Of a stretch of DNA of 35,258 nucleotides, positions 27,001 to 33,000 are shown one piece after another (the first letter of the stretch is position 1; each line of letters opens with the position of its first letter). A program made the position numbers. The DNA comes from Planctomycetota bacterium (GTDB lineage Bacteria > Planctomycetota > GCA-002687715 > DRQF01): the NCBI GenBank assembly GCA_027001995.1, contig JALTLO010000058.1:30202-65459 (forward strand), in the 5' to 3' direction.

Positions 27001-30000
27001 CGGCAGTTGGATTTTCGCGGAAGCTCTCATCTACGCGAACGGCAAGAGCAAATCGACGTTGCCCTTCCCGAATTTCGCCGACTTTCTTGACGCCGATGGC
27101 CTCAATCACTTCGAGTACTTCCTGAGCTGGAATGCCGAACCGGGCGATGGCGTCTTGGTCAATGAGGATCTCTAAGATGGGCTCACCAGTAATCTGTTCA
27201 ACATAAACGTCCGAACTTCCCTCCACTTCCTCAAGAATGGCAGCCACTTCATTGGCCTTATCCTTGAGCACGTCCAAATCGTCCCCGACAATCTTAATAC
27301 CCAGGTCAGAACGGATGCCGGCAACCATCTCATTGACGCGCATTTCGATTGGCTGTGTGAATACAATTTTGGTGCCAGGGAAATCACTCAACTCTTCTCT
27401 CATGAGCGTTGTTAACTCATCCTGTGTGGTTGCACGCTTCCATTTTTCTCTTGGTCTTAAAGTTATGAAGACGTCAGTCAACTGCAATCCCATGGGATCA
27501 GTTGCCACTTCTGGGGTTCCCGTTCGCGACCAAATATCTCGTACTTCGTCTGGAAACTCTTCGAGTAGGACTTTCTCCATCTGCCCGCCATAACGAACAG
27601 ATTCATCCAATGATACACCGGAGAGCCGAACTGTGTTGGCAACCAATGACATCTCCGAAAGATGTGGGACAAACTCAGAGCCCGTGTTGGCACCAAGGAA
27701 AATCCCGAATGCCAGGAGTGCAATTGCAATCCCCACCGTCAGGTAGCGTATCTTCATTGCTTGACGGACCAATGGGCGATAAATGGCTTTTGAAAAGCGA
27801 ATGATGAAGTTGTCTTTATCTTTTGGGATACGAGGCAGGAAGAAGCTGGACAAGACAGGCATCAGCGTCAATGACATGATTAGAGAGCCTGAAAGAGCGA
27901 AAATAACCGTCAACGCCATGGGACGAAAAAGTTTCCCCTCAATCCCCTCAAGGGTGAGGATCGGCAAGTAAACGATCATGATGATGAGTTCGCCGAACAT
28001 AGTCGGCTTGCGCACCTCAATGGAGGCGTCAAGAACAACTTGGCGACGGGAGAGTTTGCCGCCAGCTTCGGCCAGCCGCTTCACGCTGTTCTCAACCATG
28101 ATGACGGAACTGTCCACAACCAAACCGAAGTCAATTGCTCCTAAGCTCATCAGGCTTCCAGCGATTCCGAATCGAAGCATTCCCGAGAATGCGAAAATCA
28201 TGGAAAGAGGAATGGCTGAAGCGACGATGAGTCCGGCCCGTAAATCCCCAAGAAAAATGAAGAGCACAGCAATGACCAGAAGAGCGCCCTCTAAGAGATT
28301 CTTCTTGACGGTGTTAATCACTTGATCGACGAGCTCTTTGCGCTCATAGACCGGTTTGATGATTACACCGTCTGGCAAAGAATTCTGAATTTGCTCCATG
28401 CGTTCCGAGAGACGCTGGCTCACTTCATTCGAATTCTCGCCCATCAACATGAAAGCCAATCCAAGGACAACTTCCCCCTGGCCATTTGCCGTCACAGCGC
28501 CTCGTCGAATCTCATGCCCGATTTCGACTTTCGCGATGTCGTTGATCTTGATCGGTACTGTGCCCACAGACTTGATCACGATATTGCCGATTTGGGTCAA
28601 GTCGGTTGTCAAGCTGATGCCACGGACCAAACTCAGTTCGCCACCTTGAGAGATATTCCCTCCACCGACATTCATGTTGTTCTTGCGAAGAGCTTCCAGG
28701 ACATCATCGAGGACGAGGCCGTGTTTGGCCAAGCGATTCAGATCGACCAAGACATGATACTGCTTTTTCTTGCCACCCCAGGTATTAACTTCAGCCACGC
28801 CAGGAACCGAACGTAGTCTTGGTTTCACTAGCCAGTCATGAATTGTGGTGAGCTCTTCGAGGGTCTTGCCTTCTCCTGTGACCAGGTAGTGATAGATTTC
28901 TCCTAGCCCAGTTGCTACTGGCCCCATTTCTGGGCGTGAAATTCCTTCGGGCAGCTCTACTGATTGCAATCGCTCCATGATTAGCTGGCGAGCAAAATAG
29001 ATTCCGGTCCCGTCTTCAAACAAAACTGTTACTTGTGAGAGCCCAAACTTCGAAATTGACCGAACCATAGTCAACCCAGGCAAACCGCTAATTGCTTGCT
29101 CGACAGGGAAGGTTATCTGCTGCTCAATTTCCAAAGGAGAAAGCGCGGGTGCCACGGTATTGATTTGCACTTGCACAGGCGTGGTGTCGGGAAAGGCATC
29201 TATGGGAAGATCCATAACTGCCCGAGCTCCAATGCCCACGAAGGCAAGGGAGATGATGATCACAATGAGGCGATGCTCAAGGGACCAACCAATGATTGAA
29301 TTCAGCATGGGAGAGGAGTCCTATTTCCCGTCGACGCAGCCGCAGCCTGCCCCGATGTTTCCTTTGAGAATCTCTGTCTTCAATAAGAAGCTGCCAGTGG
29401 TAACGACGGATTCGCCGCCATCGAGGCCCTCTTCCACCACGTAGATGTCGTCGGCTTCTAAGCCGAGTTGAACCTTCCGGGTTTCGTAAAGAGTGTCTGT
29501 GAAGCGAATAAACACCACGTTGCAGCAACCTTCCCATTGAACTGCTTCCTTAGGAACCATGACGACTGGTTCAGAAGCGTCATGTACCACGATGGTTGCT
29601 TGGCCAAACATCTCAGCGCGTAAATAGCCTGAAGAGTTGTCGAGCAAGGCACGAACTTTGGTCGTCTTTGTCGTGCTGTCGACTTGTGAACTAACCCAAT
29701 CCACGACCCCCGCAAATCTCTCGCCGCGGAGGCCATCAATGGTCATAAAAATGTCCTGCCCGTCTCGAACTCGCCTTAAGTCTTTGGTCTTCACATCGAT
29801 CAGGGCCCATAACTGTGAGGTGTCCGCGATTCCAAACAGCGCCTTGGACGTATCCACCACTTCACCCGCGACAGCATTGAGTTCGACAATCTTTCCGTTG
29901 AAAGGCGCCTGAAGGGCCAAGAGCGTTGAGGTGTCTCCTTCGTTTGCTACCGATTCGATCTGAGATGTTGTTAATCCCAAGGTCAGAAGTCGCCTTCTTG

Positions 30001-33000
30001 ACGCTTGCAACGAAGCTTCGGCATTGCGAAGTTCGATTCGTGCCGCAAACACAGCTTGTGCCGACGTTGAACCAATTCCTTTGATCTTGTCAACGGACTG
30101 CCAAGAGAGTGCCTTAATCACTTCGTCATCAAGGCCGAACAAATGCAACTTCTTTTCCGATGCCATGGTCTTTGCCCGCGCCATCGTCAATTCAGCGCGG
30201 GCGTCCATCAAGGATTTCTCCGAGCCAGACTGCCGCTTCATTAGACGATCTTCGCGGGCGGCATTCTGAATGCTTACTTGGAGCAATTCCCGAGCCTTGA
30301 TTAAGTCTATTCCCGCAAGCCGAATTTCCATCTCATTAAGCCGGTCGTAATAAGATTGGGCTTGTTCGAGATTTTCCTTCCCTGTTTTCACGGTCGCGAT
30401 GAATTTGAGGTATTCAGTTTTCGCAATCCCCAAATCAACGGAATCTAAGATTGCCAAGGTATCGCCCGTCTTGACGGGATCCCCCAGGTCTTTTTTCACT
30501 TGGTGAACAATCGCTGGCACACGGGATGCCACACGAGCATAGAGATTGCGGGCGAATTCAACTTCGGCGTTGCAAGTAATGACATCGCGAATGGGGCGTT
30601 TTTCGATCGTTACATACTCAATTCCAGCTCGTTTCGCAGTTTTGTAAGAGCTCAATTTCACCGCAACGTCATTGTTCTTGCATGTGGGATTGGGTTTGCG
30701 CTTGATTCGCGGAACACCCGAGTCCGCCGACTGGTCAGCTAACTGTCTCTTGAACTCCGGATTACAAGTGCCACATTGAGACTCGGGGACATCGTGCTCA
30801 TTGCACCAGTCTCCCACAGATTTGAAGGCGGCCACCAATGCAGGATGGCACTTGTAACAGAGTGCTTCGGCGACTCCGTGTTCAGTACACGTCCCCCTTT
30901 CCTGGATGATGCTTGGACTACAGTAAGGACAATCTGCTTCCGCGATTTGATGTTCACTGCAGAAATCAGCTTCTGTTGTATCCGAACTGGACACATCTGG
31001 GCTGTTTCCTCACAAAGGGCATTGAGACTCGGGAACATCATGCCCCTTGCACCAATCGTCTGTGGCCTTGAAACCAGGGATCAAACCGGGATTGCATTGA
31101 TAGCAGAGTGCTTCTGGAACTCCGTGTTCTTGACACACTCCTTTAGCTTCAATCAACTTGGGATCACAAAAAGGGCAAAGGGCTGGGTCGACTCCATGCT
31201 CAGCACAAAGGGTAGAATCCTGCGTGGTTGTTTCCCCACCGGCGGAACGAAAATATGTGGAGTAAATAAAGAAGGATCCTGTACCCACAAGAATGACGGC
31301 CGTTATTGACAGAATGAGTTTCTTGTTCACAATTGATTCCATTTGCCTGCTCCTAATTCTCACGTCCAATGAGGCTTAAAATCTTGGCAGCGGCCATGCA
31401 CCAGTCTCGCCGACCATCAAGGATTGCTAAACGCGCCTCATTCAACGTGCGTTGAGCATCAAGTATTTCAATGAAGGATTGTCGCCCTGCTTGGTAGCCA
31501 TCCCGCGTCTGAGAAAGAGAGCGTGTTGCGGCAGGAAGTATTTTCTTAGTTAAGCTTCCGACCTGATCAGCGGCGGCTGTGTACGATGCATAATAGCGGG
31601 CAAGCTTGGCCCGCAAATCAGCCTTGACGGCAATGGCACCCTGGCGAGCGATCGTTAAGCGGTGTTTTGCGGCCATGATCTTGCCTTGATTGCGATTGTA
31701 AAGCGGAAGGGGAAATTTCAATCCTGCTTCGACGAAGCTGTCATTGGTCTCTCGGTCTTGACCGTAGGCCAGTCGAAGCCGGACATCGGGGATGCGTTCG
31801 GCTTTAGCGCGATCAACCTCATGGGAGGCGATCTCGATGGATCGTTGAGCGGCGAGAATGAGAGGATGATTCTCGTGAATGGCTTGCCAAAGCGTCTCAA
31901 ATTCAATTTCCGGTTGGCTTGTGGGCAAGGTTCCAACAACTTGGCTCGCCGTGATCTTGACACCAACCAGCGATTCAAGCCGAGATAGCGCAGCTTGGCC
32001 CTCATGATTTCGTCTTCGCCTAGATATCTTAAGACGCTCTGTTTCGACCTGCGCTTTGAGTTTTTCTGTCTCTGGTGCCGCACGTTCTTGAAACCGATTT
32101 GTTGCGACTTTCAATGTTTGGCTCGCGAGAGTCAACAAATCGTCGAGCAGGTTCTTTGATTCGGCCAAGTATTGGATTTCGTATATGCGCTCTTGAATCT
32201 GGCCGAACACGCGTCGTCGGACTGCATCAAGACGTTTGATATCCCTAAGTCTGGATGCAGAGGCCGCAGCGATGGCCGCTTGCCTGCGACCTCCTATGAT
32301 GAGGGGCTGAAAAATGGCGATTGATCTTTCGCTATTTCTCAAAGAAAAGCCTGAAATAGGAATTGTCGCCGCTTGGATTGCGACTTGCGGATTGGGGAGC
32401 AATTCTGTCTGCCAAAGTTCGCCTACGGCCACGCCAATTTGTTCCCGGGCCGCCACAATCTTCGGATTGAGCCGGTCTGCCAATTGAAAGAACTCGCGGG
32501 CATGAAGGGTTTTCTTGGCACCAATCTCGAGAATCTCTTCGTCTAAGAGATTCGGCCTAACGGATGTCTGCACCGGAAGTGACGAGTCGTCGAATCGCTG
32601 GGCATAATCTGGCCGTCGGAAGCCAGTGGCTACGCACCCCGAGGTTGTCGCGAGGGTCGTTAAGCACAGCAACATGACCCCGATGCCGCACCCATGTCCC
32701 CTTCGAGTCATTGCTTGACTCCTTGGGCGTCAGCCTCAGTCTGGGGCACCATTGATTCGAATCCCAGATGCCCGGCAACGGTGCCAATCAAATGACGCCA
32801 AAACAGATCTGCGAGTCGATAGTAGACCAATTTCCCTTCAGTCCGAAAGGTGATGGCACCCGCTTGACGCAACTCTTTGAGTTGCTGGGAGGTGCCGGAC
32901 ATTGATTGGCCCAGGATCTGTGACAGATCACAAACACATAACTCGGTTTTTTCCAGGGCGAGAAGTACCTTGAGTCGACTTGGATGCGCCAAGACTTTCA

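Follow-up and report, generated by a model that had tools for sequence, protein, structure and literature searches.

Two adjacent open reading frames in the window, a 35,258-nucleotide stretch of contig JALTLO010000058.1 from a Planctomycetota bacterium, very probably form a single adaptor gene of a heavy-metal efflux pump, with an internal UGA (codon 111) read as selenocysteine (Sec). Translation table 11 cuts this gene into ORFs 31010-31369 and 29321-30994; as a preliminary description of the locus had stated, translation gave one frame of 673 codons with a TGA at codon 111 as its sole internal stop and TAG as terminator (Table 1). The protein carries an N-terminal anchor and its gene lies between those of an outer-membrane factor and an RND pump, as expected for an RND adaptor, and the czcCBA-like operon context described before was confirmed by matches to ArsR/SmtB, OEP and CusA/CzcA (TIGR00914). 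It scored above the cut-offs of RND_mfp (TIGR01730, 136.4 bits vs. 94.9) and HlyD_D23 (159.5 vs. 30). The earlier assignment to RND_mfp thus stands, but that to CzcB/NccB does not (TIGR00999, 161.4 bits, below the curated cut-off of 319.3), and because of this score the label 'CzcB-type' is only loosely valid: by the NCBI threshold the adaptor is a relative of that subfamily and no member.

Table 1. Positions in the window of the efflux operon and of the parts of its adaptor gene.
Feature	Position	Strand	Evidence
ArsR/SmtB-family metalloregulator, operon gene 1; 3' end overlaps start of next gene	32708..33130	-	NF033788 78.5 bits (cut-off 55), Pfam HTH_5
Outer-membrane factor (TolC-like, OEP)	31353..32711	-	Pfam OEP E 2.5e-42, two stretches
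Complete adaptor gene, 673 codons + TAG, read through UGA111	29321..31342	-	One frame, one TGA; HlyD_D23 and RND_mfp above cut-off
N-terminal membrane anchor, residues 9-27	31262..31318	-	19-residue Kyte-Doolittle mean 2.11
Cys9His3 module 1, residues 44-113, repeats 1-3; last ligand position = proposed Sec	31004..31213	-	69-module alignment; AF2 pLDDT 95.5
UGA codon 111, proposed selenocysteine (C-P-L-U)	31010..31012	-	Same codon in G001
SECIS-like hairpin GUGUCC-AGUUC-GGAUAC, within linker coding region	30978..30994	-	RNA comparison with G001
Cys9His3 module 2, residues 126-195, repeats 4-6, all Cys	30758..30967	-	Translation and module alignment
Adaptor core, barrel-sandwich / HlyD_D23, residues 252-579	29606..30589	-	Pfam PF16576 E 9.5e-47; ZneB 3lnn E 3.7e-29
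W-E-G-C-C motif, residues 603-607, family-invariant	29522..29536	-	Family alignment
C-terminal G-A-G-C-G-C tail, residues 664-669; C667 = UGA in 23 relatives	29336..29353	-	Family alignment
CusA/CzcA-family heavy-metal RND pump	26219..29308	-	TIGR00914 1180.7 bits (cut-off 701.45); TM4 motif D-F-G..D-S-S..V-E-N

The six C-x2-H-x6-C-x2-C repeats described for the N-terminal part are present, with repeat 3 reading WCKGHDVPESQCPL-U and repeat 6 WCNEHDVPESQCGTC, but alignment and an AF2 model led to an amended picture of two copies of a 70-residue domain with three repeats each. Nine Cys and three His are invariant across 69 aligned modules, the ninth and last Cys (column 68) being Cys in 67 of them; U at this column is confined to the first modules of this genome (G000) and of a congener (G001). 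The module is predicted as a compact fold with little secondary structure (AF2 pLDDT 95.5) and was found both fused to the adaptor and free-standing; the nearest all-Cys relatives, proteins of about 600 aa with 43-47% identity, consist of anchor, one module and core. Searches with the 70-residue module gave no model match in Pfam and NCBIfam, a best E of 0.47 in a PDB profile search, no Foldseek matches and no VIA-align matches with Z ≥ 2.

The genome that harbours the adaptor encodes tRNA-Sec (Rfam 68 bits; ARAGORN anticodon tca), selA (511 bits), selB (334 bits) and selD (357 bits, itself with one TGA), all four above the curated cut-offs. At least six further genes with an in-frame TGA belong to known selenoprotein families (two AhpD-like, two Trx7/PDZ, Fdh-alpha and one Trx-like); the adaptor itself matched none of the NCBIfam selenoprotein models. 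The reported orthologue of the congener (G001, locus L021) was recovered with 63% identity over residues 1-671 and one TGA at the identical codon. Between the two genes dS is saturated and dN amounts to 0.247 for the upstream part with repeats 1-3, 0.223 for repeats 4-6 and 0.294 for the core. Neither another stop nor a frameshift occurs in 673 codons; purifying selection is acting on both sides of UGA111. Judged by their protein ends, four further database ORFs (P0003, P0004, P0007 and P0009; 47-55% identical) terminate with ...ESQCP[LT] at the same residue, so that the UGA form no longer appears limited to two genomes as had been assumed. P0009 and the close downstream-ORF relative P0021 come from contigs of equal size (2902), as do P0003 and P0023 (11706). 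The TGA111 form was found neither in 80 genome_contigs loci besides G001 nor in 80 metagenome loci, and a pattern scan of metagenome contigs detected none. An inherited nonsense mutation in a decaying pseudogene would agree with a TGA form that is seen in DNA of one genus only, and with the finding of no adaptor copy in G002, an 89% complete genome of the same genus. It is nevertheless hardly credible in view of the saturated synonymous sites, the frame without a second stop or a frameshift, the dN of 0.22-0.29 on both sides, the intact motif residues and the four more diverged ORFs that halt at the same residue.

The hairpin GUGUCC-AGUUC-GGAUAC begins 18 nt after the U of UGA111, with the loop G 25 nt from this U, and has a stem of 6-7 bp including one G.U and the loop AGUUC (AGUUY if G001 is included). 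As described previously, G001 has the hairpin at the same place with a change from G.U to A-U (GUAUCC-AGUUU-GGAUAC), and the two genomes are identical in 15 of 17 hairpin bases vs. 11 of 30 in the flanking 15 nt on each side. At the remaining in-frame UGAs of this genome the downstream loops are GGUC, GGUCU, GGU, AGUU, GUU and GUC, and the hairpin after UGA111 is similar to these. A hairpin descriptor, composed after the data had been seen, describes the G000 and G001 sites, five of eight other in-frame UGAs of this genome and 16 of 23 C-terminal UGA sites (see below); the same post hoc descriptor applies to 1.1% of the 205,575 TGA triplets of the genome. No Rfam SECIS family matched at UGA111 (E ≤ 10), the 63-nt stretch of G001 folds no better than its shuffles (z 0.26), and both genomes share the apical hairpin only.

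UGA111 might also be a real stop that releases a 110-residue anchored mini-protein, with the adaptor made by re-initiation at a GTG (30992-30994), and the GAGG that overlaps the UGA 13 nt 5' of this GTG would fit such a reading. In other genomes, free-standing genes of anchor and module do lie directly upstream of adaptor genes, at five of 143 loci (L064, L082, L111, L118 and L122) and in P0006, P0008, P0010-P0013, P0015 and P0017. However, these free-standing genes retain the last Cys and a tail, and their downstream adaptors have a start and an anchor of their own, whereas the part downstream of UGA111 is devoid of an anchor, as is P0022, which starts in the linker. Residues 9-27 are the only hydrophobic segment of the adaptor able to export it, the highest Kyte-Doolittle value downstream of the TGA being 0.83. 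An adaptor left in the cytoplasm would be of no use, but the downstream part is under purifying selection; moreover, the GTG is replaced by GTA in G001, the stop falls precisely on an invariant Cys in six sequences, and the hairpin is kept inside an otherwise diverged linker. Termination at UGA111 is improbable on these grounds, and the proposal that the last Cys of repeat 3 is replaced by Sec is supported by the Sec machinery, the Cys column, the conserved UGA and hairpin, and the downstream part without an anchor. As far as sequences can tell, UGA111 is most likely decoded as Sec.

That this Sec serves in addition as a metal ligand is a fairly probable combination. The module has an odd number of Cys (nine), and each repeat provides one invariant His and three Cys, which fit three Cys3His sites better than disulfides. 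A redox role would be in line with C-x-x-U as a classic redox motif: among redox selenoproteins, no Sec motifs are more common than CxxU and UxxC (PMC13188914, Table 1), and scant secondary structure in a confident fold is seen in disulfide-stabilised as well as in metal-stabilised mini-domains. UGA111 would then still encode Sec, but C-x-x-U would be redox-active (selenenylsulfide or thiol-selenol exchange) or purely structural instead of a transfer ligand, for instance by keeping the Cys sites in the periplasm in the reduced state or by lending stability to the fold. This appears rather unlikely from the odd Cys number with three invariant His, the metal efflux operon, and the fold and family searches, which revealed no redox fold or family, thioredoxin-like or other, for the module.

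For Sec as metal ligand, the following scheme is put forward, in which the insertion of Sec, the binding and choice of metal, and the relay are inferred. SelB with Sec-tRNA(Sec) would bind the hairpin after UGA111 during translation and Sec would be inserted, leading to one 673-residue protein with anchor, two periplasmic Cys9His3 modules and a ZneB/CusB-like core with W-E-G-C-C and G-A-G-C, in which the third site of module 1 would change from Cys3His to Cys2-His-Sec. On the periplasmic side, the modules may take up soft or borderline metal ions and deliver them via the thiolate motifs of the adaptor to the CusA/CzcA pump, similar to CusF and the CusB N-terminus for Cu(I). The selenolate might allow tighter or faster exchange of the metal and better resistance to irreversible oxidation.

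CzcB has His-rich N-terminal motifs, and the ligands of CusB and CusF are Met, His and Trp; to our knowledge, the Met-based CusF/CusB is the only system for which the uptake of substrate from the periplasm by a tripartite metal pump has been described in detail. ZneB from Cupriavidus metallidurans (PDB 3lnn) is the closest solved sequence relative of the adaptor (E 3.7e-29), which shares with ZneB/CzcB systems the RND_mfp and HlyD_D23 matches and the operon partners (CusA/CzcA pump, outer-membrane factor and metalloregulator), but differs in its two N-terminal Cys9His3 modules, W-E-G-C-C, a Cys tail outside the models, and Sec. In principle it resembles E. coli CusCFBA, where the metal is captured by an extended adaptor N-terminus (CusB) or by a separate small protein of the periplasm (CusF) and then handed on to the pump (cf. 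PMC6235853). Unlike those proteins, the predicted ligands here are Cys3His and Sec, and no similarity of the module to CusB/CusF in sequence or fold was detected by profile, Foldseek and VIA-align searches. The adaptor family may represent a Cys/Sec-based alternative to CusF/CusB, with a new, confidently predicted 70-residue domain and two Sec positions marking the presumed ligands. Metal-related bacterial selenoproteins include the SO_0444 Cu/Zn efflux transporter (UxC), the cation-transporting ATPase E1-E2 (UxxC) and a putative mercuric transport protein (C/SxxU) (PMC13188914). As proposed here, these are transport proteins with Sec in place of a metal-binding Cys and with Cys homologues, but they belong to other families, and subunits of tripartite RND pumps are not among them. 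RND adaptors are absent from the 119 families tabulated in this review of May 2026 (RefSeq annotation being outside this comparison), in agreement with the suggestion of a first selenoprotein among RND adaptors, and an envelope transport machine would join the selenoprotein list. The source runs carry the label hydrothermal vent metagenome, a metal-rich setting, which on its own proves nothing.

A second presumed Sec site was found at the C-terminus. The homologue with TGA in the G-A-G-C motif mentioned in the preliminary description was confirmed (G011), and this form turned out to be far commoner, with TGA at the position of C667 in 23 of the 89 family matches among 401 Planctomycetota genomes, these 23 lying in 20 genomes. 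Conserved tails follow the UGA (U-C-P-E-K/E, U-A-D-D and others), and nearly all sites are followed by GC-rich hairpins with GGUC or GUC loops and differing stems. In G-A-G-U-C-P-E-K-stop, the putative Sec stands beside a Cys and a few residues before the stop, with the candidate SECIS beyond it. This resembles the C-terminal 'star' selenoproteins (UXX-star families, KCU-star and the Cys-Cys-COOH SaoC; PMC13188914), but the tail here belongs to an adaptor of 400-670 residues, and 'star' models such as NF041211 gave no hit with G049 or G011 at E ≤ 1. It is slightly more likely than not that heavy-metal RND adaptors are an unrecognised selenoprotein family with two independent recruitments of Sec to metal-ligand positions, one to the last ligand of the new periplasmic Cys9His3 domain and one to the G-A-G-C tail. 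If true, metal would be handed from the periplasm to the pump along a thiolate/selenolate relay, and the selenium atom would offer a natural spectroscopic probe of the metal path. Decoding of UGA would also explain why gene calling in Planctomycetota genomes splits such genes in two or leaves them five residues short. The W-E-G-C-C pattern matched 476 stretches in genome_contigs, and tblastn confirmed 462 of them as relatives; the UGA111 form was also present on a contig from a second sample.

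The two adjacent ORFs that the preliminary description had read as one adaptor gene do form a single frame of 673 codons, broken once by TGA at codon 111 and closed by TAG. The four genes from the ArsR/SmtB regulator to the RND pump constitute a tight operon (see table). The adaptor core matched HlyD_D23 with an E value of 9.5e-47 and RND_mfp over its cut-off (136 bits, cut-off 94.9). The label CzcB-type fits loosely, as 161 bits for CzcB/NccB stayed below the cut-off of 319. Among solved structures ZneB (3lnn) was the closest relative (E 3.7e-29), followed by CusB. The TM4 motif of the pump reads D-F-G..D-S-S..V-E-N, which we take to be nearer the divalent-cation type than the A-I-G..D-A-A..I-E-N of CusA.

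Coordinates of the adaptor operon, its neighbours and related forms (positions in the window unless stated otherwise)
Feature	Position	Strand	Remark
Transposase remnant	34716-35228	-	ISL3-type DDE domain, E 6e-48; reaches window end, ~1.6 kb upstream of regulator
ArsR/SmtB regulator	32708-33130	-	NF033788 over cut-off
Outer-membrane factor OEP	31353-32711	-	Pfam OEP
Adaptor frame	29321-31342	-
Table-11 ORFs from split adaptor frame	31010-31369 and 29321-30994	-	translation table 11
UGA codon 111	31010-31012	-	sole internal stop of adaptor frame
Hairpin after UGA111	30978-30994	-
Module copies in adaptor	residues 44-113 and 126-195	-	two 70-residue units
CusA/CzcA-family RND pump	26219-29308	-	TIGR00914, 1180 bits (cut-off 701)
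524-residue ORF	24293-25867	-	~350 nt past the pump's end; no Pfam/NCBIfam match
MMPL/Patched-like membrane protein	22104-24296	-	730 residues; overlaps 524-residue ORF
Transposase remnant	17388-17807	-	DDE_Tnp_1_4 C-terminal fragment
C-terminal UGA forms	L242-L261, L231, L024, L025		20 Planctomycetota genomes

The genome (92% complete) has the apparatus for reading UGA as Sec: selA, selB, selD and tRNA-Sec (68 bits, anticodon tca) each scored over cut-off, and selD itself carries a TGA at codon 11. On contig C148 (21750-24409) selA, selD and tRNA-Sec are clustered, with selB apart on C17. In-frame TGA was also found in further matches to selenoprotein families, namely two AhpD-like, two Trx7/PDZ (one of them with two TGA), Fdh-alpha and one thioredoxin-like. 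The proposed hairpin GUGUCC-AGUUC-GGAUAC could be located with its stem beginning 18 nt past the U, and the congener has GUAUCC-AGUUU-GGAUAC with the described change from G.U to A-U; 15 of 17 bases are identical within the hairpin vs 11 of 30 in its flanks. The apical hairpin alone is common to both. The 63-nt stretch of the source genome folds better than shuffles (z = -2.49, with the UGA within the lower stem) and that of the congener does not (z 0.26). Elsewhere in the genome in-frame UGAs are followed by the loops GGUC, GGUCU, GGU, AGUU, GUU and GUC, and AGUUC fits their R-G-U-Y pattern. A descriptor written post hoc (a stem of 6 bp or more, no more than one of them G.U, closed by a 3-7-nt loop that has GU at loop position 1-2, its G 18-36 nt from the U) matched both adaptor sites, 5 of the 8 other in-frame UGAs of the source genome and 16/23 of the C-terminal UGA sites treated below, compared with 2,265 of 205,575 TGA triplets genome-wide (1.1%). 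Rfam, including its SECIS models, gave no match at E <= 10 in window 30850-31100.

The orthologue in the congener is 63% identical over residues 1-671 and, as described before, carries TGA at the same codon; this is its sole internal stop. Since dS between the two is saturated in every segment, dN was used alone, without a dN/dS ratio; it came to 0.247 over repeats 1-3, 0.223 over repeats 4-6 and 0.294 over the core, indicating similar purifying selection upstream and downstream of UGA111. A decaying pseudogene is all but ruled out, because both flanks are under purifying selection and, although dS is saturated, neither gene has acquired a second stop or frameshift. The UGA form had been found in these two genomes only, but it is probably more widespread: the 110-residue upstream ORF matched 17 proteins in a collection of 5.8 billion, four of which, besides those of the source genome and its congener, are protein sequences (P0003, P0004, P0007 and P0009; 107-109 aa, 47-55% identical) that end exactly at ...ESQCP[LT], the same residue. 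The corresponding search with the downstream ORF led to a close clade, P0020-P0024, at 58-66% identity, before the next relatives dropped to 46%; all five end in G-A-G-C-[G/A/C]-C..., and P0022 begins within the linker (MSGSDAEPAGFCKEH...) without a hydrophobic segment. The longest contig is 2902 for both P0021 and P0009, and 11706 for both P0023 and P0003. Among 80 related loci in genome contigs the TGA form occurred only in the congener (L052), and a TGA match at L088 was rejected as non-coding, out-of-frame DNA. In metagenome contigs the exact pattern W-C-x2-H-x-V-P-E-S-Q-C-x2-TGA gave no stretch, and 80 related loci found there, the closest only ~53% identical on its best segment, had no TGA in the repeats or at the C-terminal Cys. 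The sequencing runs listed are three DNA runs from one study, one of which may have yielded this DNA, and no RNA is among them. A contig from a second sample of that study spans 30747-31049 with two differences, TGA and hairpin being unchanged. This contig (run X2, depth 2.9) differs at 30817 (C>T) and 30970 (C>A) on the + strand, and the latter would alter linker residue 125.

The six C-x2-H-x6-C-x2-C repeats of the preliminary description are all present, though they are better described as two copies of one 70-residue unit of three repeats. In most relatives the adaptor core is preceded by this module, mostly in one copy; at least one repeat was found in 79/85 loci examined and exactly three in 37, and an order-level search detected the N-terminal domain in 3 of 23 genomes. 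The invariant positions of 69 aligned modules comprise nine Cys, three His, one Trp and one Pro, save that the last Cys (column 68) is U solely in module 1 of the source genome and its congener. AlphaFold2 on this alignment predicted a single compact domain (mean pLDDT 95.5, pTM 0.83). No Pfam or NCBIfam model covers the module, a PDB profile search gave a best E of 0.47, and neither Foldseek nor VIA-align matched a solved fold; as the module is small and poor in secondary structure, this leaves the novelty of the fold unproven. The N-terminal part of a 963-residue homologue (L022, G030:C1) is enlarged to 10 repeats by the pattern C-x2-H-x5-8-C-x2-C, with several nearly identical tandem copies of repeat plus linker (...KWCEHGFEKGNCYQCDPKLADKFKK.GDWC.GHDVPESQCFPCN...) and every repeat all-Cys.

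UGA111 might instead be a genuine stop with the adaptor translated separately, and the strongest point for this is that genes for an anchor plus module stand alone directly upstream of adaptor genes elsewhere: L064, L082, L111, L118 and L122, 5 of 143 loci in a scan that sees in-frame cases only, with short database proteins of the same type in P0006, P0008, P0010-P0013, P0015 and P0017. By analogy, these anchor-plus-module-plus-tail proteins may be separate CusF-like chaperones. However, in these genes the final Cys is retained and a brief tail follows it, whereas the stop in the source genome falls on the invariant Cys itself, and the adaptors behind them have their own start, membrane anchor and module. 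The part after UGA111 runs from a linker straight into module 2 without an anchor (best 19-residue hydropathy 0.83 vs 2.11 for residues 9-27), and the GTG opening the downstream ORF is GTA in the congener. An adaptor without access to the periplasm would not stay conserved in this way; separate translation is thus unlikely. Decoding of UGA111 as Sec is, on comparative grounds, highly probable.

The motifs W-E-G-C-C and, at the C-terminus, G-A-G-C are common to family members; the former pattern occurred in 476 stretches of genome contigs, 462 of them confirmed as relatives by tblastn, from many phyla. When the last 119 residues were searched against 401 Planctomycetota genomes, 89 matches in 78 genomes were obtained, 23 of which, from 20 genomes, contain one TGA. 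Translation of all 23 placed it exactly on the cysteine of G-A-G-C, with 2-5 conserved residues between it and the stop. The tails (U-C-P-E-K/E, U-G-C-S-E, U-A-D-D(E), U-T-D-D, U-C-E-D-A-R and others) have Cys-form counterparts in G-A-G-C-C-E... or G-A-G-C-[A/T/V]-D-D, and this clade has (Q)-N-D-G-D-C in place of W-E-G-C-C. Nearly all 23 sites show a GC-rich hairpin that begins 14-21 nt past the U, beyond the stop, with differing stem sequences and loops of GGUC, GUC, CGUGA or GUU. RNAalifold detected the stem common to these sites, two of whose pairs show seven double changes apiece; the MAFFT/RNAalifold consensus has just 4 pairs, and its sequence part mirrors the coding tail, which makes it a poor yardstick for the N-terminal site. 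selA was found in 11/12 such genomes tested, the exception being G080 (80% complete), but is no discriminator, as the Cys-form genomes tested carry it as well. To judge from these sequences, the family has a second, commoner predicted Sec site at the G-A-G-C cysteine (C667 in the source genome).

The observed features of this system are its gene anatomy, decoding apparatus and metal-efflux context, together with two ligand-like positions where Cys and Sec correspond. SelB-dependent insertion at codon 111 would yield an anchored periplasmic protein whose first module has a Cys2-His-Sec site, and the modules could act, by analogy, as a fused CusF-type chaperone supplying the thiolate motifs of the adaptor and the pump. 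The main functional alternative, that C-x-x-U serves a redox or structural role rather than metal transfer, is the less likely one, though it deserves serious consideration.

Full-text literature searches turned up no description of an RND adaptor that contains Sec, and passages from the main texts of deep-Sep and BSepDB do not mention efflux, RND, HlyD or adaptor. Table 1 of a review from May 2026 (PMC13188914) covers 119 families and subfamilies of prokaryotic selenoproteins, none of which is an RND adaptor, an HlyD or a membrane-fusion protein. This agrees with the suggestion that the adaptor would be the first selenoprotein among RND adaptors. UGA would be decoded here in the usual bacterial manner; the novelty lies in the protein family, in the domain and in the two proposed Sec sites. 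Closest among the entries of that table are the SO_0444 Cu/Zn efflux transporter, the E1-E2 ATPase, the C-terminal 'star' families and a TonB-dependent receptor (PMC13188914).
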